This document shows positions 14,069 through 61,862 of a DNA stretch of 64,000 bases, piece by piece. Position numbers and translations under genes: made by a program. The stretch is from Candidatus Omnitrophota bacterium (GTDB taxonomy: Bacteria > Omnitrophota > Gorgyraeia > Zapsychrales > Fredricksoniimonadaceae): positions 1,846-65,845 of the forward strand of contig JADGCU010000001.1 in assembly GCA_015228785.1 (NCBI GenBank), written 5' to 3'. Within the stretch, counting starts at the first letter, position 1. Each line of letters begins with the position of its first letter. The notes beneath the pieces were generated by a model. The model did not search any database and was not told the origin of the DNA. It saw nothing but the letters and a program-made list of their open reading frames with translations.

Positions 14069-16159
14069 ATGATTCCTGTTGTTCCTTTTTTGCAGCGTTG
14101 CGCCTTTGTAAAAAAGATCCCCGTCTTTTCCACTCTTAATTGGTACCGCATTCAATTGATCGCCCGAAATGGGAGCTTGCTTCGTTTTAAGAAAGGAGAT
14201 ATTGTTTCAAAAAAAGGAAATCCTCCGGATTTTGTTTTCTTTGTTCTTTCCGGACGATTGATTTCTTATATTTCTGATGGTGGTAAGAGAAGGGATGATG
14301 CGGAGCACGTTCATCGGGGAATGTTTTTTGGTATTATTTCAGCCCTGACGGGAGAGGTCCATTCTCAAACGTTTGAGGCGATGAATGATTCGCTTATTTT
14401 TTGTCTTCCTGTTACTAAGCTTAAGAGGCTTCTTAAGAAAATTCCTGATCTGAGTATAAAATTCAGCAAGGCTTTATCCCAGCGTATTCGAAGTCACGTG
14501 ACTAATACGGAGTTGGTTGATAGGACGACCATTATTTCTGTTTACAGCCCCATTGCGGGATCCGGGAGCTCGACCTATTCCTTAAATTTAGCCTGGAGTC
14601 TTTCTAAGGAAACATCCGATAAGGTAGCTCTCGTTAGTATTCGTTCGCGCAAGGCGCCTCAGCCGACGACGTCGTCTGCCTTTGACCATGTCCGCCCCAA
14701 ATGGAAAATAACGCCCAAAAGCCTTGCCACGATCGCGAACATTGAAGAGATCTCAACGATCATGCATAAGAGTGAGATCGGTGCGGATATGTTAAATGTT
14801 GTTTTTGATCCTGCCGTTGAGTCTCAGGTTGAGCAGATCGCGGATTTTGTAAATGGGTTTATTGATGAGTATCGGTATGTGATCGTTGATCTTCCCAGTG
14901 AATTGGATGATGTTGTTCTTAAAACCCTTTCCCAGTCGGATCTCATTCATCTTGTTCTGGCAAGAAGTCGTGAAGCCTTGGAGAATGGCCGAGCTATCAT
15001 CACCAGGCTGGAGTTTTCTCTTAACAGGTCTTTTAACCAGGAGAGGGTTCGTATCATTATCGGCGGAGTTCATGGGCACAGGAATGTTTCTGAGGCAACC
15101 GTGCACAGCATTATAGATTACCCTGTGCTCGCTTTTCTTCCCCTGATTCAGGAAAAGGATCTAGCTGCTGAGATCGGGACATCTGTTATTCATTTTTGGG
15201 CCCTGGATGTTCATTGCCCTTATTGGATGGCGATTACCAGGGTGGCACGTCAGGTGTCAGGGGTCTCTGTCGGGCTTGTCCTGGGGGGAGGGGCGGCATT
15301 TGGTCTGGCCCACGTCGGTGTTATCAAGGTCTTGGAAGAAGAGAATATCCCTATCGATTTTATTGCCGGGAGTTCCATGGGGGCGTTGATCGGAAGCCTG
15401 TGGGCAGTTGGGTATAAGGCGAGTGAGCTTGAGAAAATGGCTCATGAATTCCGTGATAAATCAAATCTTATCAAGCTTCTTGATTTTGTTTTTCCGCTTT
15501 CGGGTCTCATCAGCGGCAAGGCGATCATGGCCTGGCTTTTTAGTAAGTTTGACCAGAAAACTTTTAGCGATGTCAGGATCCCTCTTAAGATTGTGGCCTA
15601 TGATCTTATTCATCGTCAGGATATTGTGATCGAGAGCGGCTCTTTGGTGGATGCGGTTCGTAAAAGCATTTCGATCCCCGGCGTTTTTCAGCCCATTATT
15701 ACAGATGATCAGATCATCATCGATGGGGGAGTGATGAATCCTTTGCCCACGAATGTTCTCGTTTCCTCAGATGTTAAAAAGATTATCGCTGTCAATGTTC
15801 TTCAAACACCGGATGATGTGATCAAAAGTTATGAGCGGACCCAGAAGGTGATCCGTAAGTCGCTGAGTGAGCCGTTTCTCAAGGACCCCTGGTTCTTTGT
15901 CGATATCCGGTTCAGATTTTGGGTCAATCGGATGTTTTTCCCTAATATTTCTGATATTATTGTAAGGACGCTTGAGGCCTCTGAAAGTGTTATCGCAGAG
16001 CAAAGCGCCCGGGCGGCAGATGTTTTGATCCACCCTGATCTTGTAGGGCTTAATTGGTACGAATTGTACGAAGCGGAAACCTTGATTCAACGCGGAGAAG
16101 AGGCGACCCGAGCCCAGCTTCCTAGAATAAAAGAGATCATTCAAAATAAGAAACGTTAA
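14069..16159 (+). CDS. three-domain protein: cyclic-nucleotide-binding domain / degenerate ParA-MinD-like domain / patatin-like phospholipase
   Basis: N-terminal CAP-type cNMP fold (FKKGDIVSKKGNPPDFVFFVLSGRL...FFG). The middle region looks like ParA/CpaE, but the Walker A reads SPIAGSGSST. The C-terminus has patatin motifs GGGAAFG, GSSMG and DGG. Confidence 0.8.
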   Translation: MIPVVPFLQRCAFVKKIPVFSTLNWYRIQLIARNGSLLRFKKGDIVSKKGNPPDFVFFVLSGRLISYISDGGKRRDDAEHVHRGMFFGIISALTGEVHSQTFEAMNDSLIFCLPVTKLKRLLKKIPDLSIKFSKALSQRIRSHVTNTELVDRTTIISVYSPIAGSGSSTYSLNLAWSLSKETSDKVALVSIRSRKAPQPTTSSAFDHVRPKWKITPKSLATIANIEEISTIMHKSEIGADMLNVVFDPAVESQVEQIADFVNGFIDEYRYVIVDLPSELDDVVLKTLSQSDLIHLVLARSREALENGRAIITRLEFSLNRSFNQERVRIIIGGVHGHRNVSEATVHSIIDYPVLAFLPLIQEKDLAAEIGTSVIHFWALDVHCPYWMAITRVARQVSGVSVGLVLGGGAAFGLAHVGVIKVLEEENIPIDFIAGSSMGALIGSLWAVGYKASELEKMAHEFRDKSNLIKLLDFVFPLSGLISGKAIMAWLFSKFDQKTFSDVRIPLKIVAYDLIHRQDIVIESGSLVDAVRKSISIPGVFQPIITDDQIIIDGGVMNPLPTNVLVSSDVKKIIAVNVLQTPDDVIKSYERTQKVIRKSLSEPFLKDPWFFVDIRFRFWVNRMFFPNISDIIVRTLEASESVIAEQSARAADVLIHPDLVGLNWYELYEAETLIQRGEEATRAQLPRIKEIIQNKKR

Positions 16160-16632: not shown

Positions 16633-18597
16633 ATGAATAATAAAGGTCTGACATTTACTGAAATATTGGTGGTGATAACAGTTATTGCGCTTCTGATCGT
16701 CGTTGGTTTGCCACGTTTTAAGGGAATGCGGGATGAGGCAAATCTCGCAAAAAGTCGGGAGAATTTAAAAACGATTCAGGCGGCCCTTGAATCATACAAG
16801 ATCAATCACGACGAATATCCTGACGAAACGAATTACCAGGAAACACTGGTGAGCGCCCGCCCTAAGATCATGTCTGCCCCATTGATCGATCCGTTTACAG
16901 GAAATCCTTACTATTACAGCACAAGTGATGATGGGCAATATTACGTCCTGGCCTCGGCGGGGGCTGACGGTGTATTGGCTATTACGGGGGTCGGGGATGA
17001 CGGTGTTGTAGCGGGAGAAAATCTTATAGGGTATTGCTTGAGTAATGGAGTCTGCCCAGTGCGGGGAGAAGAGGGGGAAGATGGGTGTGGTTCAGGTCCT
17101 TCCTGCGCAGGGGGGCAAACCTGTTGTAGCGGAACCTGTGTAGACACATCTTCCTATGCGTCCCATTGTGGCGCCTGTGGAAATGCCTGTCAATGGCCGG
17201 AAGAATGTAGCGGCGGGTCTTGTCAGGAACCGGTCGAAACAGGTTCTGGCGAGACGGGCCAGTATTGCTACGCCGGGGCTGATTGTCAGAGCGGCCGATG
17301 TGTCTGGGCCAGATGTTCTGCTGGGCAGAATGGGGCGGCGTGTTTGACTTCAAGCGATTGTGCTGATGGACAGTGTCTGGGGATGAGGTGCTCTGACGGG
17401 TTAAATGGCTCCAGGTGTACATCGTCAGTGGATTGCGATGGGAACTATTGTGTAAGTGGTTTTTGTAGGAGCGGTGGTTTGGAGGAACCTTGTCTCACAG
17501 GGGCTGATTGTATTGATGGATATTGCAGTCCTTCTGGATGTTCTGATGGTTTAGTTGGTAGTAGTTGTATGAATGACACAGAATGCCGGAGTGGTTATTG
17601 TCCTGCTGCCGAAACATGTACGGATGGTACAAATGATTCGCATTGTTATGCTGCAGAGGATTGCCAGAGCGGATATTGTGTTAATTCAACGTGCACAGAC
17701 GGGGCCGTAGGGACGGCTTGTGCGGGTGATGTTAACTGTCTTAGCGGGAATTGTGATGAAGGCACATTGCTGTGTGTTCCCGGTGATTTAGGAAACACAT
17801 GTGCGGGTGTCGCAGCTTCTTTGTGCTCTGATGTTTGCGTAAATTTAAATTCAGATAATCAGAATTGTGGTTCGTGCGGGAATGAATGTGCTCTAGGAAA
17901 GTGCTTAAATGGTGTTTGTCAGGCAGGGATCGGGGCAGCGTGTGCGCAGAATTCTGATTGTTTTAGCGGAAAGTGTGTGTCATTAGTATGTGCTGATGCT
18001 GATCATTGTTCTTCGGGAGAGGAATGTTCCAGCGGCGTCTGTGTTTTTGGTCTTTGCAAGGCAGCCGGAGGAACGAATGGCGCTGCCTGCGATGAAGATT
18101 CAGATTGTGCAGGGAATTGCGCTTCAGGAACGTGCGTGAATGACCCGGCTACTGCCAATGAGTACTGCGTTACAAGCTCGGATTGTTTTGCTAATCAATG
18201 GGGCATGTATTGTGCAGATGGCCGGTGCCGTAGTGGCGCCATAGGATCCTATTGTTCTTCCGGAGATCAGTGTGCCAGCGGTTCATGTTTAGAGTGGCAT
18301 TGCGCGGCTGATTGTACAGAAACGGCAGATTGCCCTGTTGGCTCAACGTGTGTAAATTCAAGATGTGTTGATGGAGAAAATGGCGGTCCTTGCATAATCG
18401 CAGAAGATTGTGTATCTGGTTCTTGTAACGAAACAGGTCGTTGTCAGGCCTGTTCATCCAATGCTGATTGTGGCGGTGTATTGGGCTATTGTGATACTTA
18501 TTATAGCGTTTGTACAGATGGGACTCCGGGGAATTATTGTGGTTCTGATGATGGATGTGTCTCTGGTCAATGCGCAGGGGATAATAGTTGTCTCTAG
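16633..18597 (+). CDS. GspG-type pseudopilin N-terminal domain fused to a ~520-aa cysteine-rich repeat region
   Basis: Prepilin leader MNNKG|LTFTEILVV with Glu at +5, plus GspG-like body motifs (LKTIQAALESYK, DPFTGNPYYY...YVLASAGADG). From aa 135 on there are about 20 repeats of the form C-x3-4-DCxSGxC, plus two Stig1-like CVDxxSDxxNCGxCGNxC motifs. Confidence 0.75.
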   Translation: MNNKGLTFTEILVVITVIALLIVVGLPRFKGMRDEANLAKSRENLKTIQAALESYKINHDEYPDETNYQETLVSARPKIMSAPLIDPFTGNPYYYSTSDDGQYYVLASAGADGVLAITGVGDDGVVAGENLIGYCLSNGVCPVRGEEGEDGCGSGPSCAGGQTCCSGTCVDTSSYASHCGACGNACQWPEECSGGSCQEPVETGSGETGQYCYAGADCQSGRCVWARCSAGQNGAACLTSSDCADGQCLGMRCSDGLNGSRCTSSVDCDGNYCVSGFCRSGGLEEPCLTGADCIDGYCSPSGCSDGLVGSSCMNDTECRSGYCPAAETCTDGTNDSHCYAAEDCQSGYCVNSTCTDGAVGTACAGDVNCLSGNCDEGTLLCVPGDLGNTCAGVAASLCSDVCVNLNSDNQNCGSCGNECALGKCLNGVCQAGIGAACAQNSDCFSGKCVSLVCADADHCSSGEECSSGVCVFGLCKAAGGTNGAACDEDSDCAGNCASGTCVNDPATANEYCVTSSDCFANQWGMYCADGRCRSGAIGSYCSSGDQCASGSCLEWHCAADCTETADCPVGSTCVNSRCVDGENGGPCIIAEDCVSGSCNETGRCQACSSNADCGGVLGYCDTYYSVCTDGTPGNYCGSDDGCVSGQCAGDNSCL

Positions 18598-23899: not shown

Positions 23900-26800
23900 T
23901 TATGTCTTTTGAGGATGGTAATTGTTAAGGAAGGCGATAACCTTGGCCTCTTCAATGGGCTTGCTTAATAAATAGCCCTGGAAGTAATCGCAATGGTTGC
24001 TTTTCAGTCGGTTGAGCTGAGAATCTATCTCAACGCCTTCCGCGACAACACTTAGTTTAAGTTTATGTGCCAGAGCAATAATGGATTCAGTCAGGTCGTT
24101 TTCTTCGGTTTCCTGGGAAATATTCTTAATGAAAAGCCGGTCTATTTTAAGTCTAGAGATCGGTAAATGTTGAAGATGGCTTAAGGAAGAATAACCGGTC
24201 CCGAAATCATCCAACGCTATTTTAACCCCCAGCGCTTGGATTTGCTTCAAAATATCGACAGCAGCTTCGAAAGACTCGATGAGGATGCTTTCGGTGACTT
24301 CAATTTCCAGGGATTCTGGAGGAAGTCCGTTATCTTTGAGGGCATTTTTAATCGTATCCAGAATACTCGTCCGTCTTAATTGGGTGACAGAGATATTAAC
24401 AGCGATCGAAAGCCCGGGATACCCTGCTTCTGATAATTTCTTGTTAAATTGACACGCCCGGTAAAGAACCCATTCCCCCATAGGAACGATCAGGCCGGTC
24501 TCCTCTGCGACAGGAATAAATTCATCTGGAAAGACAAGGCCGCCTTCTTTTCTATTCCATCGTAAAAGGGCCTCAAAACCGAGAATCTTTCCATCTTTTA
24601 CGGAAACGATGGGCTGATAAGAGAGAGAAAGTTCGTCTTTAGAGAGCGCCTCCCGAAGTCCTCGCTCTATCTGCATCTTTGTTACAGCCTTTTGGTTCAT
24701 AATACTATTAAAGAAGCAGAAATTGTTTCTTCCCGCATCTTTTGCCGCATACATTGCTGTATCAGCATTTTTAAGAAGTTCTTCAAAAGTATCCCCATCA
24801 TTGGGGGAAACAGCGATCCCGATACTGGCTGTGATAAAAAGATCATTTCCGGAAATGATACGAGGATTGTTAAATTTCTCCCGAATACGTTCAGCTATCT
24901 GCTGGGCAAACTGTCCATCTTCCAGATCAGTTAAGAAAACAATGAATTCATCCCCTCCTAATCGCGCTAGGGTATCTGATTCGCGAATACATTCGGTTAA
25001 TTTGAAGGCAGTATCTTTGAGCAGTTCATCTCCCACAGAATGCCCCAGGGTATCGTTGACGCTCTTAAAAAGGTCCAGGTCTATAAATAAAACAGCGCAC
25101 ATGGTCTCGTTTCGCCGGGCCTTGGCTAATCCTGTATTAGCTTTTTCCAGGAAGAGTGTCCTGTTAGGGAGAGTTGTCAGCATATCGTAGTGCGCCATGG
25201 TGAGAAGCTTGTTTTCCAGGAATTTTCTGTCTGTAACGTCCCGTCCTATGCCAATAAGCCCTTTGATCAAGCCATCAGGACCTCTAAAAGGCAGTTTTGT
25301 GGTCAACAGCCAATGTAAGCCACCTGACGTCCCGTCAATGACTTCTTCCCGGTTGATGACTGGGCGACCGCTTTGAAGAACGGCTTGATCATCTTTAGAG
25401 TATTGTTCCGCCAAATGCGCTGGATAGAAATCCGCATCTGTTTTTCCCAGAATATCCCGTTCATTTTTAACACCCATAAAATCAAGATCAGCCCGGTTGG
25501 CCAGAATTTTTCTGCCGCCAATATCTTTCACGTAGATACTATCAGGAATATTATCAATAAGGATACGCAGGAGTTCTCTTTCCTGGGCCAGGTTTTGTTC
25601 AGCAAGTTTACGTTGTGTGATATCCAATGAAATATTTGCCAGATATAAAGGTTGTTGTGTTTCAGGGTCAACGAGGGTAAAAAGGAGCGTATGCACATCT
25701 GTTAGGGAGCCCGTCTTTAAATGGCGACATTGGGAATCCCCCTCCCAGCGACTGTCCCTGATCAGAGTTGGAAGAATTTCATTTTTGAACTTAGTTGTCA
25801 GGTGTTCGGGAATAACGTCAAAGATTGTTTTTTGATCCATTTCTTCAGGCTCAATTCCTAGCATTTGGCTTCCCGCGTCATTTAAGAAGACTATGCCGCC
25901 CTCCAGTGTTGCAAGATAGATCATTTCAGTGCTACAGTGAATAACGGAAACAAGTTTTTGGAGTTCTTCTTGTGCCAGGCGTTGTTCACTGATATCAACA
26001 CAGGCACCAGACATTTTCTCAACAATCCCCTCTTTATTACGTTGGGCAAGGCCTATATCATGCCACCACGCATAGGTACCATCTGATTTTTTCATTCTGT
26101 AAACAGTGTCATAAGGACCATTATCTTTCAAATGTTGTTCAAAAAGGTGTTTGACGCGTATTAGATCATCAGCATGTATTCGTTTTTCCCAATCAGAAAC
26201 AGTGTGTAAGCTTTCTTCAGGCGTCAGTCCTAGCATGGAATTGACAAAATTGGACCAGGTCATTTTTCCATCGATCAAGGAGCGTTCCCAAAGAGCAACT
26301 CTGCCGGCTTCTGATGCGCGTTCCAGTCTCTTTTTGCTTTCTTGAATAATATTATCTGAAGCTTTACGATCAGTAATGTCTCTGCCAAATCCAGTAGTTC
26401 CTAGGATGTTTCCATTTCCATCAAGTATCGGGGTTTTGTAGGTTTCAAACCATTTGATGGATCCATGATCTAAAACAGGTTCTTCTACAAATTTCTTCCT
26501 TCGCGTTGCTATGACATCCAGATCATCTGCGACATAGCGTTCCGCGAGTTCTTTAGGCCAAATATCAAAATCAGTCAGGCCATTTAAGGCTGAAGCGTTG
26601 GGCTTATTACAGGAGCGGGCGAAAGTCTCGTTAACCGCAAGAAAACGACCCTGGGGATCTTTAAGCCATGCAATATGTGGAAAATTATCAAAGATTGCGG
26701 ATAGATAGGCTTCTCTGGTTTTTAAGGCTTCTTCTGCTTTCCTTGCTTCTGATATATCTGAAAAAACGGTAGCAAACGTACCAGGAGAAAAAGAAATAAT

Positions 26801-28618
26801 GGAAACGAGGAAATGCTTTTTCATGGGCTCAAAGTAAACGGTAAGAGATGATGGTTGCCCGGTTTCCAAAGGTCGAATGAATTCATTTAAATAAGGGGGT
26901 TGTGTGGTCCCGTAGACATCTGTAGCAAGTTTTCCAATAACCCGTTCACGAGGCAGTCCCAGGATTTCTTCATAACGTGGATTTACATCAGTGATCATGT
27001 AATTAACAGCAAGCCCATTTCTTCCGTAGATCACCCTGTGCATGGCCACGCCTTCTTGCATATTAGCAAAGAAAGAACGGAACTTTTTTTCACTGTCTTC
27101 CAGCGCGCGCGCCGTCATTCTGGTTTCGGTTACATCACGAAAGATTAAAATAACACCAATGATCCTTTGTTGATCATCCTTGATCGGGGCGCTCTTATTT
27201 TCGATAGGGAACTCTTTTCCGTCGCGGGATATAAGAAGGGTATGATTGGTCAGGGCAAGAATATTTCCATCGAGAAGTACTTTTTCAACGGGATCCATTA
27301 AGGGCATACGCGTTGATTCATTAAGCACGCAAAAGATCTCCTTGAGGGGGCGTCCTGTAGCCTCTTGGGCGCTCCACCCGGTAAGTTGTTCTGCGATTGT
27401 GTTCATGCGCGTGATGTGCCCGGAAACATTTGTTGTGATCAAGGCCTCCCCTATAGATTGCAGGGTGGTCATTAAATGATATTCTTTCGCTTCCGATTCA
27501 TGGGTCCGCTCCTCGGCAAAACGTTCCGCTACCTTCTGTTGAAGAAAGGCTCGTCTAATGTAGAGGGCAGACAAGAAGCTGAGAAGAATACCTAATGGGA
27601 GAAAGATCCAGTAGACAGGAAAAAAGAATGAAACGAAGAACGGGGTCGATGCTTCAACGGCAATTGAGAATTTTCGATCTAGAATAGGAATCTCGCGCAT
27701 ATAAACAGATGATTGCGGGTATAAGAAGTCAAAGGTTTTTGAAGATGGATGCTCGAGAGAACGTATCTGAAAAAGAAGGGATTCTGGAGAAGCGGAAACA
27801 TCATAGATTTTTATTGTTAACCCTGGAGCCAGAGGATATTTCAGGGCAGCTTTCGCAATCCCTGATGGTGAGAGGATCATCGCAGCATAACCTGCGATCG
27901 TCTCGGCAGGAAGGGGATCCAGTTCATGTTTTTCTGCCAAGACAGCTGCAATTAAGAGATAAGACCCTTCTTCATCTTTAGCAAAAGCCCATGGTGAAGG
28001 AAAGAAAAGTGTTTGGCCTGCTTTTTGGGACGCAGCGTCAAAGATCTTTTGCATTGATTGGCTGGCGCCAAGATCAAGGCCCAGAGAAGACGCGTTTTTC
28101 TCTTCCAAAGGCGCGATTAACGTGATCGGGTAATAAACGCTCCTTTGCTGTGAGACAGGCGATCGCCCATCAGGTGTCATATCATGAATAACGAAAGAAC
28201 CATGCTCTGTATCCCAGCGATCCTCAAAGGAGTCCTTTTCTAAGGAGCTGACTTTAGACACCCAGAAAGTTTCTAAAATGGTATCGGATTTGCCGAGAAA
28301 TGGTTGAATAAAATCATTAAACTCCTTTCGGTTGACAAATTCGGTCCCCCCGAAAAATCGTCGAAGGCTGTCAAAGTCAGCCGCGGCTCCTTTTAGTTGT
28401 TCGGAAATAATATCGCAGCGGAGATTTGCGCTTCTCTCAAAATAATGTTTTGCGAAGCTAAGGGCATTCTTTTGTGTTTCAAGAAAGAAAGATATGGTAA
28501 AAGACGTTCCAAAAAAGAAAATAATAGAAGGAAGAAAAAGTGAAGGAAGAAAAAAGCGTGAAAAGCCCTTATTTTCTTTGCCGCAAACAAGATTGGAAAT
28601 GTTTTTTAAGGCAGTCAT
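23900..28618 (-). CDS. membrane sensor: CHASE domain, six PAS domains, GGDEF diguanylate cyclase and EAL phosphodiesterase
   Basis: Two TM segments flank a CHASE-like periplasmic domain. Repeated PAS/PAC units follow, then the GGDEF motif (RLGGDEFIVFL) and EAL motifs (EALLRW, DDFGTGYSSL). Confidence 0.9.
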   Translation of the reverse strand: MTALKNISNLVCGKENKGFSRFFLPSLFLPSIIFFFGTSFTISFFLETQKNALSFAKHYFERSANLRCDIISEQLKGAAADFDSLRRFFGGTEFVNRKEFNDFIQPFLGKSDTILETFWVSKVSSLEKDSFEDRWDTEHGSFVIHDMTPDGRSPVSQQRSVYYPITLIAPLEEKNASSLGLDLGASQSMQKIFDAASQKAGQTLFFPSPWAFAKDEEGSYLLIAAVLAEKHELDPLPAETIAGYAAMILSPSGIAKAALKYPLAPGLTIKIYDVSASPESLLFQIRSLEHPSSKTFDFLYPQSSVYMREIPILDRKFSIAVEASTPFFVSFFFPVYWIFLPLGILLSFLSALYIRRAFLQQKVAERFAEERTHESEAKEYHLMTTLQSIGEALITTNVSGHITRMNTIAEQLTGWSAQEATGRPLKEIFCVLNESTRMPLMDPVEKVLLDGNILALTNHTLLISRDGKEFPIENKSAPIKDDQQRIIGVILIFRDVTETRMTARALEDSEKKFRSFFANMQEGVAMHRVIYGRNGLAVNYMITDVNPRYEEILGLPRERVIGKLATDVYGTTQPPYLNEFIRPLETGQPSSLTVYFEPMKKHFLVSIISFSPGTFATVFSDISEARKAEEALKTREAYLSAIFDNFPHIAWLKDPQGRFLAVNETFARSCNKPNASALNGLTDFDIWPKELAERYVADDLDVIATRRKKFVEEPVLDHGSIKWFETYKTPILDGNGNILGTTGFGRDITDRKASDNIIQESKKRLERASEAGRVALWERSLIDGKMTWSNFVNSMLGLTPEESLHTVSDWEKRIHADDLIRVKHLFEQHLKDNGPYDTVYRMKKSDGTYAWWHDIGLAQRNKEGIVEKMSGACVDISEQRLAQEELQKLVSVIHCSTEMIYLATLEGGIVFLNDAGSQMLGIEPEEMDQKTIFDVIPEHLTTKFKNEILPTLIRDSRWEGDSQCRHLKTGSLTDVHTLLFTLVDPETQQPLYLANISLDITQRKLAEQNLAQERELLRILIDNIPDSIYVKDIGGRKILANRADLDFMGVKNERDILGKTDADFYPAHLAEQYSKDDQAVLQSGRPVINREEVIDGTSGGLHWLLTTKLPFRGPDGLIKGLIGIGRDVTDRKFLENKLLTMAHYDMLTTLPNRTLFLEKANTGLAKARRNETMCAVLFIDLDLFKSVNDTLGHSVGDELLKDTAFKLTECIRESDTLARLGGDEFIVFLTDLEDGQFAQQIAERIREKFNNPRIISGNDLFITASIGIAVSPNDGDTFEELLKNADTAMYAAKDAGRNNFCFFNSIMNQKAVTKMQIERGLREALSKDELSLSYQPIVSVKDGKILGFEALLRWNRKEGGLVFPDEFIPVAEETGLIVPMGEWVLYRACQFNKKLSEAGYPGLSIAVNISVTQLRRTSILDTIKNALKDNGLPPESLEIEVTESILIESFEAAVDILKQIQALGVKIALDDFGTGYSSLSHLQHLPISRLKIDRLFIKNISQETEENDLTESIIALAHKLKLSVVAEGVEIDSQLNRLKSNHCDYFQGYLLSKPIEEAKVIAFLNNYHPQKT

Positions 28619-40395: not shown

Positions 40396-40471
40396 TCCCC
40401 TGTAGCTCAGTTGGTAGAGCATGTGGCTGTTAACCACAGTGTCCGAGGTTCGAGCCCTCGCGGGGGAGCCA
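40396..40471 (+). tRNA. tRNA-Asn (anticodon GTT)
   Basis: A 76-nt cloverleaf: acceptor TCCCCTG/CGGGGGA, D arm GCTC-AGTTGGTA-GAGC, anticodon stem TGTGG/CCACA with loop CTGTTAA, T arm CGAGG-TTCGAGC-CCTCG, and an encoded CCA. Confidence 0.95.
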
Positions 40472-40857: not shown

Positions 40858-41487
40858 ATGAACCATATCCGCCCTTTAGAACGAATTTTAGACTCCCAGG
40901 CCAAGGTCGCCATATTGAGGGTTTTATCCTTAGGGGTTGACCGGCGTATGGGAGGCAGCGAAATTGCGCGTGCTACGGGTTTTTCTATCCCCTCAACGCA
41001 TGATTCTTTGAAAGCATTACATGCTCTGGGTGTTGTCACAATGGAGCTCCTTGGAAATCAGCATGTTTACGTTTTGAACCACAAAGACCGGATTGTTCAG
41101 AAAATTCTTCTGCCAATGTTTAATGCAGAGGGCAACTGGAAGAAAGATGCCAAAGATAAGCTGATCCAGGGCATGAAAGATACGGGAATTCTTTCCTCCA
41201 TTGTTTCCGTCATCCTTTATGGCAGTATTCAGCAAGGGAATGCCAAGCAAGGCAGTGATTTGGATCTTGCGGTCATAGTGAAAGCTCCGGCAGATCTGGA
41301 AAAAGCCAGCGATGCGTTCCTAGGGCCCATTGCTGTTGATTTTGCGTCTTATTTTAGGATACGGCTTGATGCTTATATCAAGACTGCAGATGATTTTAGC
41401 AAGATGTTAAAAAGAAACAGCCCCCCCATTTCAACCTTGATGAAAGCTTATTCTGTTTTGTACGGTAAAGAACCACTGGAGATATGA
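40858..41487 (+). CDS. winged-helix + minimal nucleotidyltransferase (MNT) domain protein, antitoxin-like
   Basis: N-terminal wHTH (ILRVLSLG...GSEIARATGFSIPSTHDSLKALHALGVV), then the NTase motif LYGSIQQGNAKQGSDLDLAVIV (GS-x10-DxD). Confidence 0.8.
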   Translation: MNHIRPLERILDSQAKVAILRVLSLGVDRRMGGSEIARATGFSIPSTHDSLKALHALGVVTMELLGNQHVYVLNHKDRIVQKILLPMFNAEGNWKKDAKDKLIQGMKDTGILSSIVSVILYGSIQQGNAKQGSDLDLAVIVKAPADLEKASDAFLGPIAVDFASYFRIRLDAYIKTADDFSKMLKRNSPPISTLMKAYSVLYGKEPLEI

Positions 41488-41488
41488 G

Positions 41489-41893
41489 ATGACACCCAAA
41501 GAAACAAAGGTTCGCGAGGAAAGCCGTTTAGCGGCCAGTGATTATTTAAAAAAGGCGACCGATAATTATGAGCAGATGATCGTTGCCTATAATGCCGAGA
41601 ATTGGAATGCGGCTTCCACACTAGCCGTGCAATGCGCGATTTCGTCAGCCGATGCCATCTGTGTTCACCATCGAGGCGTGCGTTCGATCTCTCAGGATCA
41701 TCTTGATGTCTGTGAGTTGGTTTCCTTAATAGCGTTAGAAGGAGCAGCGGAAAAGGCCAAACAGCTTCGTAAGGTCATTGCCCGCAAAAATATGGTTCAG
41801 TACGAGAGCCGCAGCGCCAGACGCACGGATGCGGATGAAATGGTTAAAGTGACCACTCGTTTTTACCAGTGGGTATTGGAAAATCTTCGCTAA
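41489..41893 (+). CDS. HEPN domain protein, toxin-like partner of the MNT gene
   Basis: 134-aa all-helical ORF that starts 1 nt after the MNT stop. It has a candidate R-x5-H motif (RSISQDH); the MNT-then-HEPN gene order is classic. Confidence 0.7.
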   Translation: MTPKETKVREESRLAASDYLKKATDNYEQMIVAYNAENWNAASTLAVQCAISSADAICVHHRGVRSISQDHLDVCELVSLIALEGAAEKAKQLRKVIARKNMVQYESRSARRTDADEMVKVTTRFYQWVLENLR

Positions 41894-48355: not shown

Positions 48356-49762
48356 TTAGGCAAAGATCAAGGCGAGAATGTTCATTATTAACTGAGGCCA
48401 GAATCCGAACAAGAGAACAGCTGAGAGACAAATGGCGAGAACTATCATCCCGCTTACAGGGATACGGATGGGCTGAGAATCCGGGGAATCTTCAAAATAC
48501 ATAACTTTGATCACTTTTAAATAATAAAAGAAGGCGACAACGCTATTAACAACAACGGCAGTAGCCAGGAAATATTGCTTTACGTCAATGACAGCCACAA
48601 GGACAAAGAATTTTGCGAGAAATCCAGCCAGCGGCGGAAGGCCTGCCAGGGATAACAGGAAGATGGAAAAAACAAGGGCCCATCCTGGCGCCCGACGTCC
48701 CATGCCTTTGAATGATTCCAGAGGGGCGCGTTCAGATGATAAGAAGGATGCGCACGCAAAGGCCCCCATGTTCATGAACGTGTAGATCACGATATAAAAA
48801 AATGCGGCCTTCAAGCCTAACACTCCTGCGGCAAGGCCGGCTAATATGTATCCTGCCTGGGCCACAGAAGAAAACGCCAGAAGACGTTTTACGCTCTCTT
48901 GATGGAATGCGGAGAAATTGCCTATGGTCATGGTCGCGATCGCCAGAAACACAGCTATCCCCTCCCATCCTGATGTCAGGAAAGCGGGGAATCCGAAGAA
49001 TACTCTCGCCAAAAGAGCAAATCCGATGGCTTTGGGGCCAATCGAAAAGAATGCAGCAACAGGCCACGGTGCCCCCTCGTACACATCAGCGACCCACATA
49101 TGAAAAGGAACAAGGGATGCTTTAAAGGCGAATCCTGCAAAAACAAGTAACCCGGCAAGAACTAGTGTTGGCTCATGAATCCCCCCTGCGGCCAACTTGA
49201 GTCCGATGGCGGGAAGGCTCAACGTTCCTAAAAGGCCATATACAAGCGATATCCCATAAAGCATAATTCCTGTTGATAGAGCGCCGAAAAGGAAATATTT
49301 GAGCCCTGCTTCTGTGGAATAAAGATCTTTTTTGAATGAACACGCCAGAACATAAGATACGATCGACAGGGTTTCGATCGCAAGATAGATCATGAGAAGA
49401 TTCGTCGCGCTAACGGTGAGCATCATGGAGATCGCAGCTACTAACAGAAAGAAATAATATTCTCCCGCATCATCATGATCAGACCAGCTGTAACCAATTG
49501 ACATGAGAACAGCTAATCCTGTAGCCACAAGAACAAGAGCCCTCATAACAAAAGAAAAGACATCATTGGTTAACATGCCAGAGAAAACCATGGAGGATGA
49601 ATCCAGTGTCATGGGCAGAGAGAAAAAGCCAATGACAATGGCCATGAGTGCGATCAAGCCCAAAGGTTTTCTGCGCAAGCCAAAAACACCGCATACAAGA
49701 AGCATGAGCCCTGCGGCTGTGAGCACTAACTCTGGCTTGATAAATTGAAGTGAATTCATCAT
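48356..49762 (-). CDS. nuoN: NADH-quinone oxidoreductase subunit N
   Basis: 14-TM antiporter-like subunit, last gene of the nuo run. It overlaps the nuoM stop by 4 nt. Confidence 0.9.
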   Translation of the reverse strand: MMNSLQFIKPELVLTAAGLMLLVCGVFGLRRKPLGLIALMAIVIGFFSLPMTLDSSSMVFSGMLTNDVFSFVMRALVLVATGLAVLMSIGYSWSDHDDAGEYYFFLLVAAISMMLTVSATNLLMIYLAIETLSIVSYVLACSFKKDLYSTEAGLKYFLFGALSTGIMLYGISLVYGLLGTLSLPAIGLKLAAGGIHEPTLVLAGLLVFAGFAFKASLVPFHMWVADVYEGAPWPVAAFFSIGPKAIGFALLARVFFGFPAFLTSGWEGIAVFLAIATMTIGNFSAFHQESVKRLLAFSSVAQAGYILAGLAAGVLGLKAAFFYIVIYTFMNMGAFACASFLSSERAPLESFKGMGRRAPGWALVFSIFLLSLAGLPPLAGFLAKFFVLVAVIDVKQYFLATAVVVNSVVAFFYYLKVIKVMYFEDSPDSQPIRIPVSGMIVLAICLSAVLLFGFWPQLIMNILALIFA

Positions 49763-51216
49763 AAGGTTTTCACCAAAACATCAACGGTATGTTTTTGGAA
49801 GTCCAAGATCGCATCAGGATAAAACCCGACAATAAGGACAAGAATTAATAAAGGCATAATCACTGCCACTTCCCCCATGCTCATGTCAGACCAGACGACA
49901 CCTTCCTTAGGCTTTCCCCACAGCACTTTTTTAACCATGACCAAAAAGAGGACAACGACGGCGATAAGGCCGATCGCAGAAATAATGGCCAGTTTTGGAA
50001 ATGTTATAAAAATACCAGCTAAGGATAGGAATTCTCCCACAAATCCGCTGAGGCCTGGTAATCCCAGAGATGCCAAGGCCATAAAAGTCAGGAAAAATGC
50101 ATACCTGGGCATTGTCGAGGCCAATCCCCCAAAAGCCGAAAATTCACGCGTATGAGACCGCTCATAAACCACCCCAACTAGAAGGAACATCGCGCCAGTA
50201 ATGATACCGTGATTGAACATCTCAAGGATGCTGCCATTAAATCCCGTGCTGTTCATCGCCGCAAGGCCCAGCAAGACAAATCCCATATGACTAACGGATG
50301 AATAGGCGATCAGCTTTTTGAAGTCCGTCTGCGCAAAAGCAGCGCATGCTCCATAGATCAAATTAACAGCCCCCAGAACTCCTAGAGACCAGGCGAACAT
50401 AGCCACAGCTTCAGGAAAGAATGGCACACAAACGCGAAAGAGTCCGTATGTCCCCATTTTAAGAAGAACGCCTGCCAGGATCACGCTCACAGGGGTCGGC
50501 GCTTCCACGTGCGCATCGGGCAACCAGGTGTGAAAAGGAAACACAGGAACCTTGATGGCAAATGCAAAAAAGAACATGAGAAAGAGTATGGCCTGAAGCG
50601 TCCTACTCAAGAGTGGCGATGAATACGCCAGTTCCAACATATTAAAAGTATGTGGAGTTGAAAGAAAATAGATCCCGATGATTGCCAGGAGCATCACGAC
50701 CGAACCTGCCAATGTATAAAAGAAAAACTTCCAGGCCGCATATTCCCGGCGAGGTCCACCCCATATTCCAATTAAAAAAAACATGGGGATCAGGACTGTT
50801 TCCCAAAAGATATAAAAAACCACAAGATCCAGGGCAAGGAATGTTCCCAGCATGCCGGTCATCAGGATCTGATAGACAATGAAATATTCCTTAATTCTTG
50901 ATTTGATCGTGTTGGATGCCAGGCAGGCCAGAAATCCCAGCAAAGCGGTCAAAAAGACTAAGGCCAGGCTGATCCCGTCCACCCCGACTGTGTAGTGAAT
51001 GCCGGCCTGAGGGATCCAGGGATGTGTTTCCGTAAACTGCATGCTGCCACTCGTACGGTCAAAAAGAAGGCATAGCACACCAACGACCATGAGAACAGCA
51101 GCATTAAAAGCAATCGCGGTCATGCGAATGATCTTATCGCAATTGCCCGGGATCAAGGCCACTACCAAAGCGCCAAGAAGCGGAAGAAAAATAATAGTTG
51201 TTAAAAGATACGGCAT
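49759..51216 (-). CDS. nuoM: NADH-quinone oxidoreductase subunit M
   Basis: Antiporter-like subunit with FPFHTWLPDAHVEAPT. Confidence 0.9.
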   Translation of the reverse strand: MPYLLTTIIFLPLLGALVVALIPGNCDKIIRMTAIAFNAAVLMVVGVLCLLFDRTSGSMQFTETHPWIPQAGIHYTVGVDGISLALVFLTALLGFLACLASNTIKSRIKEYFIVYQILMTGMLGTFLALDLVVFYIFWETVLIPMFFLIGIWGGPRREYAAWKFFFYTLAGSVVMLLAIIGIYFLSTPHTFNMLELAYSSPLLSRTLQAILFLMFFFAFAIKVPVFPFHTWLPDAHVEAPTPVSVILAGVLLKMGTYGLFRVCVPFFPEAVAMFAWSLGVLGAVNLIYGACAAFAQTDFKKLIAYSSVSHMGFVLLGLAAMNSTGFNGSILEMFNHGIITGAMFLLVGVVYERSHTREFSAFGGLASTMPRYAFFLTFMALASLGLPGLSGFVGEFLSLAGIFITFPKLAIISAIGLIAVVVLFLVMVKKVLWGKPKEGVVWSDMSMGEVAVIMPLLILVLIVGFYPDAILDFQKHTVDVLVKTL

Positions 51217-53039
51217 AATTTTCCTAAAATAAACAATAGGAGCGCCAGTACTCCACCTGCCTGCATTAAGAGATAATTTTCAACAAGACCTGTTTGAAGG
51301 CGTTTTACTGCCTGAGCACAAAAAGCCACAATAGTAGAAACGCCATTGACAGCGCCATCAATGTGCAACTGATCAAATCTTTTCATGGCCTCACAGATTT
51401 TGTGAAAAGTCTGAACAAAAACAACATCATAAAGCTCATCAACGTAATATTTGTTTTCAACTAGGCGAATAAACCAGTTTCTACAGGGACAGTCTGACCC
51501 GGGAAGTTTGAATCCTTTGACAATAAGGAGATACGCTAGCCCTATTCCCGAAAGGCTTAATGCGGTCGAAAAGACGATCATTCCGTAATTCAAATGAACG
51601 GCCTCTTCCCCTCCCGTAAGGAAGTTTTGAAAAGCGCCGTGACACCAGGGCGACCCGATGAACCCTAGGCCAGCGGCAAAGACTGCAAGGATAACAAGAG
51701 GGAACGTCATCACGGCTGGAGATTCATGCGCATGGGTTTCTGTCCTAGGCTCTCCCAAGAATGTCAGGAAGATGACCCTGGCCATATAAAACGCTGTGAG
51801 GAAACTCGTAAGAACAGCAGCTCCGAACAGCAAAGGATTTCCGCTTTGCCAGAGGGTGATGAATATTTCATCCTTTGACCAGAAGCCGGACAAGGGCATG
51901 ATCCCTGCCAATGCCAGGGCGCCAATGATAAAAGTAACCCCCGTGATCTTCATCTTATGGATCAACCCGCCCATCTGACGGATGTCCTGTGTATGAACCG
52001 CATGGATCACTGATCCAGCACCCAAGAAGAGCAATGCCTTAAAGAACGCATGTGTCATCAAGTGGAATGTTCCAGCAGTAAAACCACCAGCGCCAAGCGC
52101 GAGCATCATCAGCCCCAGTTGACTGACCGTTGAGTACGCGAGAACTTTCTTGATATCATTCGCTGTGCAGGCAATAGAAGCCGCCATTATCGCTGAGATC
52201 GCACCGATAATCGCTACCGTTTGAAGCGCGAGCGGATGCATCGCAAAAAGTACATAAGACCTGGCCACAAGATAAACACCGGCAGCGACCATGGTCGCCG
52301 CATGAATCAAGGCAGAAACTGATGTAGGGCCTTCCATGGCATCAGGAAGCCATACGTGTAAAGGAAACTGAGCAGATTTACCCATGGCACCCAAAAAGAT
52401 CAACAGCGCTGCGACGGCCATCAATATTTCAGATCCCGGAAGACTTCCCATGTCAGCAAAACGAAGTGAGTGCCCCGTCGCCAGAAGGATCAAAATACCG
52501 ATCAATAAACCTGTGTCTCCTATTCGTGTTGTCACGAAAGCCTTCACGCCTGCGGCGGCTGCGGCCGGTTTTTCATACCAGAAGGCGACCAAGAGGCATG
52601 AGCACAATCCCACCCCCTCCCAAAAGATATAAAGCATCAGTAGATTATCAGCTAAAACGAGCCCCAGCATGGACGACATAAAAAGAGAAATATAAGCAAA
52701 GTATCTTGAAAATCGGATATCCCCGCCCATATATCCGATCGAATAGATCTGGATCAGCGTGCCTACGATCGTAACGACCAAAAGCATCATGACGGTCAAA
52801 CTGTCGACAATAATTCCAAGAGTAATCGGATGATCATGGATCGTAATCCAGGTTGCAAGTTCATAGGAGCCGCCCCCAGGCTTAAGCCCCATGAAGACCA
52901 GGATGGCCAGGACTGTTGAAATGAGTGACGCTCCGACTGACACATAAGCTGATCCTCTGCCAAGCCTCCGGCCAAAGGCTATATTGAGCCAAAACGCAAG
53001 GAACGGGAAAACTGGGATCAAGTGAGCAATATTTACCAT
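51201..53039 (-). CDS. nuoL: NADH-quinone oxidoreductase subunit L
   Basis: 612 aa, with QFPLHVWLPDAMEGPTSVSALIHAATMV and a C-terminal lateral-helix extension. Confidence 0.9.
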   Translation of the reverse strand: MVNIAHLIPVFPFLAFWLNIAFGRRLGRGSAYVSVGASLISTVLAILVFMGLKPGGGSYELATWITIHDHPITLGIIVDSLTVMMLLVVTIVGTLIQIYSIGYMGGDIRFSRYFAYISLFMSSMLGLVLADNLLMLYIFWEGVGLCSCLLVAFWYEKPAAAAAGVKAFVTTRIGDTGLLIGILILLATGHSLRFADMGSLPGSEILMAVAALLIFLGAMGKSAQFPLHVWLPDAMEGPTSVSALIHAATMVAAGVYLVARSYVLFAMHPLALQTVAIIGAISAIMAASIACTANDIKKVLAYSTVSQLGLMMLALGAGGFTAGTFHLMTHAFFKALLFLGAGSVIHAVHTQDIRQMGGLIHKMKITGVTFIIGALALAGIMPLSGFWSKDEIFITLWQSGNPLLFGAAVLTSFLTAFYMARVIFLTFLGEPRTETHAHESPAVMTFPLVILAVFAAGLGFIGSPWCHGAFQNFLTGGEEAVHLNYGMIVFSTALSLSGIGLAYLLIVKGFKLPGSDCPCRNWFIRLVENKYYVDELYDVVFVQTFHKICEAMKRFDQLHIDGAVNGVSTIVAFCAQAVKRLQTGLVENYLLMQAGGVLALLLFILGKLCRIF

Positions 53040-53341
53040 TTCAACGTATTAAAATCGTCCGTATTAACAGATTTTCTTAATCGATACACCGCAATCACAA
53101 GGATAAGCCCCACAACACTTGCGGCGGCGGCCACGCCGATAACAAAAAGGGCAAACACCTGTCCCAAACCATCAGGCGACCCCAAATATTTATTAAAAGC
53201 GATCAAATTAATATTTGCGGCGTTCAGGATTAGCTCAACCGAAATCAGAAACCGTATGGCATTGCGTTGTGTGAGGACGCCGTACACGCCGACACAAAAA
53301 AGAAAAAGACTTAACGCCACAATATGTCCAAGGGGGATCAT
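53033..53341 (-). CDS. nuoK: NADH-quinone oxidoreductase subunit K
   Basis: 102 aa with 3 TM helices, and ISVELILNAANINL. Confidence 0.9.
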   Translation of the reverse strand: MIPLGHIVALSLFLFCVGVYGVLTQRNAIRFLISVELILNAANINLIAFNKYLGSPDGLGQVFALFVIGVAAAASVVGLILVIAVYRLRKSVNTDDFNTLKW

Positions 53342-53826
53342 TTCTTCACCTTTCCGATCACAACAGCCCCGACCAGCGCTGCGAGAAGCAAAAGCGAGAT
53401 GAATTCAAAAGGAACAACATAGCTCGTGACCAATGATGTGCCAATGGTCTTTAGATCTGTCACGGGGCTACCTGCCTGAAGGCGCATCCAAGGGCCATCC
53501 ATAACGACCTTGCCCAGGACAACGAAAAGCGTTGCCGCGATCAAAAGTCCTGGCCAGAATTGACGATTGACCTGACTGATCGACCGATCCCCTATTTTAG
53601 CGGTCAGCATGATCGCAAAGACAAAAAGGGCCATAATGCCGCCGACATAAACAAGGATCTGAATAACACCCAGAAAACCCGCATCCAGATAGAAGTAAAG
53701 AAAAGCAATGCTGATGAGTGTTAGAGCAAGCCAGATCGCCCCATGAAAAATATCTCGAACGGTTACGCTCAAAAGAGCCCCCGCGCCAACCAAGAAAGCA
53801 ATGATGTAAAAGACGGCCTCGTTCAT
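53338..53826 (-). CDS. nuoJ: NADH-quinone oxidoreductase subunit J
   Basis: 162-aa membrane protein with LGVIQILVYVGGIMALFVFAIM. Confidence 0.85.
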   Translation of the reverse strand: MNEAVFYIIAFLVGAGALLSVTVRDIFHGAIWLALTLISIAFLYFYLDAGFLGVIQILVYVGGIMALFVFAIMLTAKIGDRSISQVNRQFWPGLLIAATLFVVLGKVVMDGPWMRLQAGSPVTDLKTIGTSLVTSYVVPFEFISLLLLAALVGAVVIGKVKK

Positions 53827-54281
53827 TTCTTCAATCCCTTTACCTTGGGCGGAGTCAAGTGCTGATACTTGTCCGCTTTAAGAAGGTCAATCTTTGTGAG
53901 GTCTCCGTGCTTGTAATACGCGACCTCATAACACTTGTTCAAATACATAGCTGCTGTGGGGCAAACTTCCTGACATAAACCGCAAAAACAGCACAGCTCG
54001 CCATTATAAGAGAAAGCGCCAAGGAATCTCTTTTTGGTCTCAGGATTAGTCGTCGCTGTAAGGTCAAGAGCTGCTGTGGGACAAATTTTAACACATTGTG
54101 AACAGGCGATACATTTCTCTGGATATAGATCAACCAATCCACGGAATTTCTCAGTCATGACTGGTTTTTCAAAAGGATATTGAATTGTCACCGGTTTCTT
54201 GAGCATATTCTTTCCGGTCACGGCAAGCCCTTTCAGGATGCTGATAAAGCCTGCCACAATATCATTGATCTTGCTTAACAT
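53823..54281 (-). CDS. nuoI: NADH-quinone oxidoreductase subunit I
   Basis: Two 4Fe-4S ferredoxin motifs, CIACSQCVKICP and CCFCGLCQEVCP. Confidence 0.9.
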   Translation of the reverse strand: MLSKINDIVAGFISILKGLAVTGKNMLKKPVTIQYPFEKPVMTEKFRGLVDLYPEKCIACSQCVKICPTAALDLTATTNPETKKRFLGAFSYNGELCCFCGLCQEVCPTAAMYLNKCYEVAYYKHGDLTKIDLLKADKYQHLTPPKVKGLKK

Positions 54282-54283
54282 AA

Positions 54284-56346: not shown

Positions 56347-56350
56347 AGCC

Positions 56351-56803: not shown

Positions 56804-56804
56804 A

Positions 56805-59894: not shown

Positions 59895-59903
59895 CGTCTA
59901 CTT

Positions 59904-60878: not shown

Positions 60879-60879
60879 T

Positions 60880-61860: not shown

Positions 61861-61862
61861 TT

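Follow-up and report, generated by a model that had tools for sequence, protein, structure and literature searches.

The functional diversity of simple type IV filaments is currently explained by modular pilins, of which to our knowledge the few that have been characterized all come from cultured pathogens. They have been defined as proteins that combine an N-terminal pilin module, a short linker and at least one C-terminal module that is not pilus-specific, and they are widespread, amounting to more than 1,200 proteins and 264 architectures (Raynaud et al. 2021, PMC8179133). One of them, PilB of Streptococcus sanguinis, is an adhesin compatible with a location at the tip (PMC8179133). Here we analyzed a protein encoded in a 64-kb stretch of DNA (the window, meaning the whole of this stretch). 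Because the combination of pilin module and extension recurs among its homologues and its stand-alone relatives are lead pilins, this protein counts as a modular pilin under the definition of Raynaud et al. (2021, PMC8179133): its pilin module (aa 6-141) is followed by a 10-aa linker and then by Stig1 modules and cysteine-rich units that are found on lipoproteins too. [quoted passage not shown] PilB and PilC on the one hand and this protein on the other each come from a family in which alternative modules are numerous, and the handle described here is also found bearing a LamG/ConA-like module. The protein differs from PilB and PilC in its disulfide-rich array of ~510 aa, its GspG-like module and its diderm-type uncultured host, and in being known from sequence alone. 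The first-pass annotation of this DNA had left room for an already characterized family; the general design has indeed been described (PMC8179133), but no member with this cysteine-rich extension has been characterized. We found no entry for Stig1 (IPR006969) in the supplements of that paper, and the cysteine-rich pilin extension is an undescribed architecture inside the known class of modular pilins.

The open reading frame lies exactly where it had been annotated (Table 1) and encodes 654 aa. It opens with an ATG, there is no alternative in-frame start upstream, and no obvious Shine-Dalgarno sequence precedes the start codon. The leader MNNKG/LTFTE, the hydrophobic helix and the GspG body motif that had been read from the sequence are all present, and the N-terminus has the organization of a class III signal, with a short leader ending in Gly, 21 hydrophobic residues and Glu at +5. 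The residue at +1 is Leu and not Phe, Leu being also found in the family members P0076, P0111 and P0150; the scores for PF07963 (N_methyl; 15.7 against 21.2 bits) and TIGR02532 (15.7 against 16.3 bits) both fall just short of the cut-off. The N-terminal part goes beyond a signal anchor and is a true GspG-like module, as had been proposed. It carries the body motif DPFTGNPYYY...YYVLASAGADG and a Pfam T2SSG domain (PF08334; 32 bits, cut-off 21) spanning aa 32-116, and its best sequence match in the PDB is PulG (5wda, E 1.6e-9, aa 7-136). The AlphaFold model shows the pilin fold, with a helix at 6-59 and five strands at 94-137 (pLDDT >90), and Foldseek matched it to pseudopilins and pilins, best of all to EpsG and PulG (probability 1.0).

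Classification as a GspG-type major pseudopilin, which the first-pass annotation had also suggested, stands only in part. The module has in common with GspG, PulG and EpsG the DPF...YxY...S.G.DG motif and the match in sequence and fold over aa 7-136, but the NCBIfam equivalog for GspG (TIGR01710) is not reached (52.7 against 88.85 bits) and a gsp operon is missing. Whereas GspG proteins of about 135-145 aa come from gsp operons, the gene studied here stands alone and its product has 654 aa, with no machinery or further pilin in the 64 kb. A Pfam scan that took in essentially all other ORFs of the window with at least 120 aa found no secretin, T2SSE, T2SSF, PilM, PilN, PilO or prepilin peptidase (peptidase A24), and a six-frame motif scan of the same 64 kb found no second pilin N-terminus. 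The gene upstream encodes a cNMP-patatin protein whose relatives, 41-45% identical, are found in MAGs labeled Planctomycetales or Omnitrophota, and in a synteny comparison no comparable gene was found downstream of these relatives.

Table 1. Features of the modular pilin gene (positions in the window; amino acid numbering of the encoded protein)
Feature	Position	Strand	Basis or remark
Complete ORF, modular pilin	16633..18597	+	654 aa plus stop; full-length homologues in independent assemblies
Leader peptide MNNKG (aa 1-5)	16633..16647	+	Sequence; prepilin-peptidase cleavage after Gly5 predicted
Hydrophobic alpha1-N segment LTFTEILVVITVIALLIVVGL (aa 6-26), Glu at +5	16648..16710	+	Sequence; within modeled helix 6-59, pLDDT >90
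Pilin module (aa 6-141), GspG-like, long helix and 5-stranded sheet	16648..17055	+	Pfam, PDB, Foldseek
Acidic linker PVRGEEGEDG (aa 142-151)	17056..17085	+	Low confidence between modules, pLDDT about 59-60
Stig1-like module 1 (aa 152-197, 10 Cys)	17086..17223	+	Pfam Stig1
Array 1, seven four-Cys units (aa 212-381)	17266..17775	+	Period 25-26 aa; pLDDT 72-93
Stig1-like module 2 (aa 390-429, 8 Cys)	17800..17919	+	Pfam Stig1; poor model, pLDDT <50
Array 2, nine four-Cys units (aa 437-653), spacing less regular	17941..18591	+	pLDDT mostly 58-79
Putative terminator-like hairpin and T-run, overlapping the stop codon	18592..18625	+	Consensus scan only

The presence of a long cysteine-rich extension had been recognized correctly; its length is about 513 aa and not 520, because aa 141 is the last residue of the pilin module. 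A C135-x5-C141 loop ('CLSNGVC') closes this module, stand-alone homologues end in the same way ('VTNGSGC'), and the extension begins precisely at their C-terminal end point. The cysteines had been expected to be even in number, and they are: all 84 lie at aa 135 or beyond, 2 in the pilin module and 82 in the extension, with an even count in every module (2+10+28+8+36). The two Stig1-like modules were found at the places where they had been predicted. The Pfam family Stig1 (PF04885; cut-off 24.1 bits) has members in plants and bacteria; the whole protein scores 42.2 bits against it, and the segment around each module passes the same cut-off in isolation (aa 145-203, 32.3 bits; aa 386-431, 26.9 bits). 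The number of four-cysteine units, put earlier at roughly 20, is 16, divided between the two arrays as seven and nine. These units have the spacing C-x5-C-x4-C-x4-C, with the consensus G-x2-C-x4-(D/E)C-x-SG-x-C-x4-C-x-DG in the first array, and each is modeled as a short helical turn and a beta-hairpin. We found no counterpart of them in Pfam or the PDB, and this four-cysteine repeat of ~25 residues is undescribed, having neither a Pfam model nor a solved structure. The same unit is also present on proteins with lipoprotein-like N-termini and is therefore an extracytoplasmic module. No ligand-binding domain is recognizable in the extension. A recent tandem duplication of the repeats was rejected because they have diverged from each other at the DNA level, and a bioRxiv paper on 'cysteine-rich repeats' was found to be irrelevant, since the cysteine spacing differs.

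Several other cysteine-rich systems can be compared with the extension. It shares CxxxCVDxxxDxxNCGxCGxxC modules with the bacterial Stig1-repeat or MXAN_6577-like proteins (mostly of Myxococcota), but these are made up of Stig1 repeats behind a Sec or lipoprotein signal, whereas here Stig1 is the minority component (2 modules against 16 four-cysteine units) and the MXAN_6577-like profile NF041328 is far from reached (17.3 against 100 bits). A local likeness of motif exists with the C-terminal Dickkopf region of DKK1 ('GQEGSVCLRSSDCASGLC' in DKK1 against 'GQNGAACLTSSDCADGQC' here), and at the weakest level the fold matches of the extension include colipase and spider toxins (ICK, knottin-like); neither profile nor structural comparison gave a significant match to the Dickkopf/colipase fold. 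The myxobacterial receptor TraA uses tandem cysteine-rich repeats as a rigid cell-surface stalk between a MYXO-CTERM anchor and a distal PA14-like recognition domain. The concept of a stalk is shared with TraA, but here the anchor is a pilin module and there is no recognizable recognition domain.

Among 1.84 billion proteins searched exhaustively, the best 150 cluster representatives included 20 in which this pilin module was accompanied by an extension, and half of these 20 had at least three four-cysteine units. The homologues P0166, P0124, P0111 and P0101, from independent assemblies, are 33-35% identical to the protein across 380-430 aa (E to 4e-57), and in many members of the family a similar Stig1-like first module comes after the pilin module. 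The protein is one of a recurrent family, not a one-off. Related pilin modules carry other cargos, namely Lcl_C, Flg_new, five fn3 plus Hint, and Laminin_G_3, and the homologue P0193 heads a minor-pilin cluster formed by a 144-aa pilin, a pilin-LamG fusion and a PilX-like-LamG fusion. One pilin handle with interchangeable modules in related organisms indicates a family of module-swapping display proteins. Other searches were less productive. An exact look-up in public assemblies retrieved no record of the protein or of a neighbor, and no relative emerged when genome and metagenome contigs were scanned by back-translation of the entire protein. In word-indexed searches the first array had a single match (P0206) and the whole protein matched mostly Stig1-repeat proteins. 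A literature search by accession found no paper on the assemblies of the homologues.

The 80 nearest stand-alone pilins show 36-47% identity, and small pilins follow them in each case. T2SSE and T2SSF precede the stand-alone pilin in all 16 long loci, PilM_2 lies downstream in 14 of the 16, and PilN and a secretin are also present in some. These nearest relatives are hence lead pilins, in operons with the order ATPase, platform, pilin, minor pilin and PilM, and because of the MshEN-type ATPases and PilM/PilN the operons resemble those of type IV pili as much as those of T2SS. The description of the gene as an orphan applies only within the 64-kb window, but its relatives normally have their cognate machinery.

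Taking these results together, we consider it reasonably likely that the protein is a modular pilin of a type IV filament, in which an acidic extension of ~510 aa has been grafted onto the C-terminus of a GspG-like carrier (aa 1-141). The genes for its processing and assembly probably lie elsewhere, and the protein is probably exposed at the filament tip as an acidic, disulfide-stapled stalk. In such a scenario, the protein would be inserted in the inner membrane with its extension facing the periplasm; the 82 cysteines of this part would pair there as intramodule disulfides, and MNNKG would be cut off by a prepilin peptidase encoded elsewhere. The pilin module would then be built into a filament by a type IV machine also encoded elsewhere, which in the nearest relatives comprises an MshE-type ATPase, a GspF-type platform, a lead pilin, minor pilins, PilM/N and a secretin. 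Because each subunit would bear a bulky stalk, the module would most likely be placed at or near the filament tip, and the thin, rigid stalk, pointing outward, would act as a fibril for adhesion or spacing. By analogy with the modular pilins already described, the role is most likely that of a pilus-tip or surface adhesin; the tip or surface display put forward by the first-pass annotation thus agrees with the prediction that can be drawn from that literature (PMC8179133). Against a placement at the tip, the pilin module is most similar to major subunits and not to known tip subunits, and it retains Glu5.

Whether the pilin module enters a filament at all is the point on which the first alternative differs. 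The protein could be a pilin-anchored envelope protein that is never polymerized, its class III signal and helix doing no more than anchor it in the inner membrane or direct its export and its cysteine-rich stalk acting in the periplasm or at the surface, as in the archaeal 'bindosome' or the pilin-like N-termini of PVC bacteria. Within the 64 kb the gene has no machinery near it, P0124/P0157 and P0107 are homologues whose genes are likewise isolated, and the four-cysteine units also occur on lipoprotein-like anchors, so that the type of anchor is interchangeable. Against this stands that the entire globular GspG-like domain, beyond the helix, is conserved and confidently modeled and that Glu5 is kept; P0193 moreover belongs to a minor-pilin cluster while the nearest stand-alone relatives are operon-encoded subunits of filaments. 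We therefore regard this alternative as unlikely, albeit with an appreciable chance of being right.

If the modular pilin is polymerized, it might instead be a shaft subunit, co-polymerized by virtue of its flexible acidic linker into a 'bottle-brush' pilus coated with cysteine-rich stalks. [quoted passage not shown] Carrying an extension of 51 kDa (calculated mass) on each subunit of 15 kDa would nevertheless be sterically costly and would require its passage through the secretin, and PilB clashes with its neighbors when modeled in the shaft (PMC8179133), so that this arrangement is improbable.

A different chemistry for the extension seems more improbable still. In this case the cysteines would act as thiols in a binder of metals or minerals (metallothionein-like or a redox relay) and not as staples of a stalk. 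With 16% Cys, the extension is also strongly acidic (65 Asp+Glu but 14 Lys+Arg, pI about 4.05); the host is likely an anaerobe-type uncultured bacterium, and the 64-kb window revealed no Dsb system. Free thiols are hard to reconcile, however, with the regular spacing and even count of cysteines in each module, with units modeled as compact turn-plus-hairpin knots, with the disulfide-rich folds (DKK/colipase, ICK toxins, Stig1) to which the nearest weak similarities point and with the extracytoplasmic location; the role of matrix or metal binder named in the first-pass annotation found no specific support. Finally, an artefact of assembly or gene calling that joined a pilin gene to a separate cysteine-rich gene, as the drop of GC3 from 0.47 in the pilin part to 0.36 in the extension might suggest, has a negligible probability given the unbroken reading frame, the lack of DNA-level tandem repeats able to collapse in assembly and the identical junction and architecture of full-length homologues in many independent assemblies, and the misassembly that had been feared was not borne out.

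Returning to the modular pilin, the locus adds to this class an uncultured, probably Omnitrophota-like family in which one GspG-like handle carries widely differing cargos. In its most far-reaching and decidedly speculative form, to which we give a rather low chance, the four-cysteine unit would be a new disulfide-stapled fibril fold that, arrayed on the pilin handle, makes a long, rigid tip 'harpoon', and the family as a whole would be a module-swapping set of adhesins, with which ultrasmall, host-dependent Omnitrophota-like bacteria would attach to their partner or prey by means of a filament machine with an MshE-type ATPase, the cargos on the conserved handle being cysteine-rich stalks, Lcl_C, FN3+Hint and LamG. 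If the extension is not displayed at the tip, the protein would be no more than an ordinary representative of a known class. If it is, its compact, disulfide-stabilized repeat scaffold may be of structural interest, and the filament would be a candidate attachment organelle in lineages that are suspected to be epibiotic or predatory.

The open reading frame lies exactly where the first-pass annotation had placed it, and its start is unambiguous because the frame is open for just 13 codons 5' of the ATG and ATG, GTG and TTG are absent among them. A hairpin and ensuing T-run that resemble a terminator overlap the stop codon, and overlapping ORFs in the other frames are short and unsupported. The N-terminus of the protein, MNNKG followed by LTFTEILVVITVIALLIVVGLPRF, presents a leader of five hydrophilic residues, the last being Gly, a Glu at +5 and a hydrophobic stretch of 21 residues; at the sequence level this is the pattern of a class III signal peptide (defined in PMC8179133). 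Profile scans gave a Pfam T2SSG match above the cut-off (aa 32-116; 32 against 21 bits), an N_methyl score slightly under it (15.7 against 21.2 bits) and, in NCBIfam, GspG (TIGR01710) as the top family, with 52.7 bits and short of the equivalog cut-off of 88.85. The search of PDB sequences pointed to PulG as the best match (5wda, E 1.6e-9, aa 7-136); further GspG entries also align with the globular part, and the similarity of true type IV pilins is restricted to the helix. The AlphaFold2 model, computed from an alignment of 31 sequences, has pLDDT values >90 across aa 11-140, a helix at 6-59 and five strands within 94-137, and its top Foldseek matches were EpsG (4lw9, 3fu1) and PulG (5o2y, 5wda), with probability 1.0 and target TM-scores of 0.52-0.64. 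Stand-alone homologues end at '...(C)VTNGSGC', the equivalent of 'CLSNGVC' (aa 135-141) here; aa 141 therefore completes the pilin module, which we call the handle, and precisely at the C-terminus of this handle the extension, or cargo, is joined.

The protein contains 84 cysteines, none of them before aa 135. Their spacing, together with an HMM made of the four-Cys units, yielded the layout in the table, in which the cysteine count is even in every block. The four-Cys unit, with consensus G-x2-C-x4-(D/E)C-x-SG-x-C-x4-C-x-DG, was counted 16 times, fewer than the approximately 20 copies first estimated. The two Stig1 motifs were borne out, the segments containing them reaching 32.3 and 26.9 bits against the Pfam cut-off of 24.1 when scanned alone. 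No family in the Pfam and NCBIfam scans was matched by the four-Cys unit, the sub-threshold hints being Dickkopf C-subdomain 1 (13.7 against 27 bits), the Dumpy DPY module and DUF7107, and its sole match in the PDB sequence search was DKK1 (E about 1). With 65 Asp+Glu to 14 Lys+Arg and a pI of about 4.05, the extension is strongly acidic; it contains no recognisable ligand-binding domain. Its GC3 (0.36) is lower than that of the pilin part (0.47) and of neighbouring genes (0.43-0.51), despite a similar overall GC; this could reflect the amino-acid or codon bias of Cys, Gly and Ser, or a different origin.

Positions of the features discussed (nucleotides of the window unless marked aa or L; L-numbers are genomic loci of homologues, with their own coordinates)
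Feature	Position	Strand	Details
Pilin-array ORF	16633..18597	+	654 codons, ATG
Loop closing the pilin module	aa 135-141		2 Cys
Acidic linker	aa 142-151		0 Cys
Stig1-like module 1	aa 152-197		10 Cys
Seven four-Cys units	aa 212-381		28 Cys; period 25-26
Stig1-like module 2	aa 390-429		8 Cys
Nine four-Cys units	aa 437-653		36 Cys; less regular
Extension, GC3 segment	17056-18594
Patatin-like protein	14069-16159	+	696 aa; N-terminal cyclic-nucleotide-binding domain, C-terminal patatin phospholipase
Signalling protein	23900-28618	-	1,572 aa; CHASE, several PAS, GGDEF, EAL
tRNA-Asn	40396-40471
Nucleotidyltransferase + HEPN pair	40858-41893	+	toxin-antitoxin-like; adjoins tRNA-Asn
nuo-type complex I operon	48356-57431	-	three Proton_antipo_M, chain 6, 4Fe-4S, NADHdh, 49-kDa, 30-kDa, 20-kDa subunits
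Cluster resembling siroheme-dependent (alternative) haem pathway	57710-63994	-	HemL-like class III aminotransferase, two NirD/AsnC-type siroheme decarboxylase-like genes, two radical SAM/SPASM genes, ALAD (HemB), HemD
P0124 and P0157	L006 10001-13108		426 and 299 aa; pilin + four-Cys array; about 900 bp apart
Minor-pilin set downstream of P0193	L009 12493-15260		two members (373, 401 aa) with Laminin_G_3
P0150 and coiled-coil proteins	L010 6964-10004		coiled-coil proteins of 313 and 696 aa
F5/8 type C (discoidin) domains	L013-L084, about 9.3-12 kb		on 7/67 flanking proteins

An exhaustive phmmer search with aa 1-215 against 1.84 billion cluster representatives identified, among the 150 best, 20 representatives that exceed 190 aa and bear the pilin N-terminal motif, and therefore have an extension; Stig1-repeat proteins and small pilins were also recovered. 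At least three four-Cys units are present in 10 of these 20 homologues (P0166 10; P0124 8; P0076 7; P0107 and P0111 6 each; P0157 and P0150 5 each; P0193 4; P0155 and P0101 3 each), so that a claim of uniqueness for this architecture does not hold. Four of the ten align to our protein with 33-35% identity over 380-430 residues (E down to 4e-57). The same type of handle bears alternative cargos, namely Lcl_C, Flg_new with Lcl_C, five fn3 with Hint (1,327 aa) and Laminin_G_3, and in such members one Stig1-like module frequently stands first. P0128 (1,327 aa) joins the pilin to a pair of Stig1-like modules, five or more fn3 domains, a Hint domain (intein/Hedgehog-type) and a Gly-rich C-terminus, a cargo that is unusual for a pilin. 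Proteins whose N-termini resemble those of lipoproteins (P0037, P0206) contain the four-Cys unit too, as does P0040, which comes from a Deltaproteobacteria MAG. The relatives with the matching fusion and varied cargos therefore establish the fusion as real and recurrent, and the protein as a member of a module-swapping family.

Secretin, T2SSE/T2SSF, PilM/N/O and peptidase A24 genes were not found within the 64-kb window, nor did a six-frame motif scan of it reveal a second pilin N-terminus, and the gene was thus rightly called an orphan as far as the window extends. The genes around it are housekeeping. IlvD, chorismate synthase, an SDR, a cNMP-binding patatin-like protein and a small cupin precede it in the same orientation, whereas the genes that follow, for MutY, NAD kinase and a HAD hydrolase, are on the other strand. 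More distant are the complex I operon, genes for siroheme-type haem synthesis, aconitases, PEPCK and GlgE. The best relatives of the patatin-like protein (41-45% identity, full length) belong to MAGs labelled 'uncultured Planctomycetales' or 'Candidatus Omnitrophota', whose loci show no synteny downstream. This protein is the sole taxonomic clue in the window and gives an approximate placement; together with the CHASE-PAS-GGDEF-EAL protein it places second-messenger genes near the pilin gene.

Scanning metagenomes with a small alignment of the family gave 80 loci, and in every one the closest relative is a stand-alone pilin (141-160 aa, 36-47% identity), after which two smaller pilin genes usually come. 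Sixteen of the loci have long flanks, and in all of these the stand-alone pilin is preceded by a T2SSE ATPase (with an MshEN domain in 15) and a T2SSF platform protein; PilM_2 (14/16), PilN (7/16) and PilO (1/16) lie downstream, and a secretin is within range in two. This operon context (T2SSE, T2SSF, PilM_2) makes the handle paralogous to the lead pilin in an operon for type IV filaments. The F5/8 type C proteins stand downstream of the minor pilins in these operons and are possible accessory or tip proteins of lectin type.

Extended relatives occupy various settings. P0193 is the first gene of a minor-pilin, tip-complex-like set (with a pilin of 144 aa, a second pilin that carries LamG and a LamG protein resembling PilX), whose two Laminin_G_3 members mean that several modular pilins are encoded in a single cluster. 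Translational coupling links P0150 to two secreted long coiled-coil proteins that are encoded upstream of it and have no Pfam match; a secretin gene lies 9 kb from P0150, and a smaller secreted coiled-coil ORF follows P0193. P0124 and P0157, near-tandem paralogues with a MazE/PIN toxin-antitoxin pair between them, have no machinery close by. A rough NJ tree of the pilin modules contains two clades wholly of modular pilins and gives our protein the stand-alone P0100 (52% identity) as its neighbour, beside the larger of these clades; the tree is compatible with grafting once or several times.

From the architecture, from the fact that it recurs and from the filament operons of the relatives, we infer that the protein would be inserted in the membrane with its extension on the periplasmic side, that a prepilin peptidase would cut after Gly5 and that a type IV filament machine whose genes lie elsewhere would take up the handle; alternatively, the protein might never polymerise and stay in the envelope, anchored by its pilin part. 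Because the appendage is of 51 kDa against 15 kDa for the handle, a position at or near the tip is argued for, by analogy with PilB of S. sanguinis, modelled at the tip (PMC8179133). The alternative of a subunit decorating the filament shaft was left possible by Raynaud et al. if the linker is flexible (PMC8179133). The 82 cysteines of the extension would be oxidised into intramodule disulfides, the rival reading being a thiol-based metal binder. A misassembly can be dismissed, since the fusion recurs among relatives and since, a trivial 14-nt duplication apart, DNA-level tandem repeats are undetectable, which makes the protein repeats old and diverged. A rigid acidic stalk or adhesive fibril is the likeliest role of the extension, and the tip or surface adhesin first proposed is a reasonable idea.

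The pairing of a pilin with a Cys-rich array was thus accurately observed (ORF, T2SSG match, Cys dissection), and its design is that of the modular pilins as defined by Raynaud et al. 2021, who described >1,200 proteins in 264 architectures and proposed tip display (PMC8179133). That design is already known, as is the combination of pilin and Stig1, present in public data in P0019 under the automatic label 'PulG'. What is new is a cargo in which a four-Cys repeat not described before forms a long array, the size of this array, the largest among the relatives retrieved, the evidence that one GspG-like handle bears many cargos in uncultured lineages, and the tie between this GspG-like handle and MshE-type filament operons.
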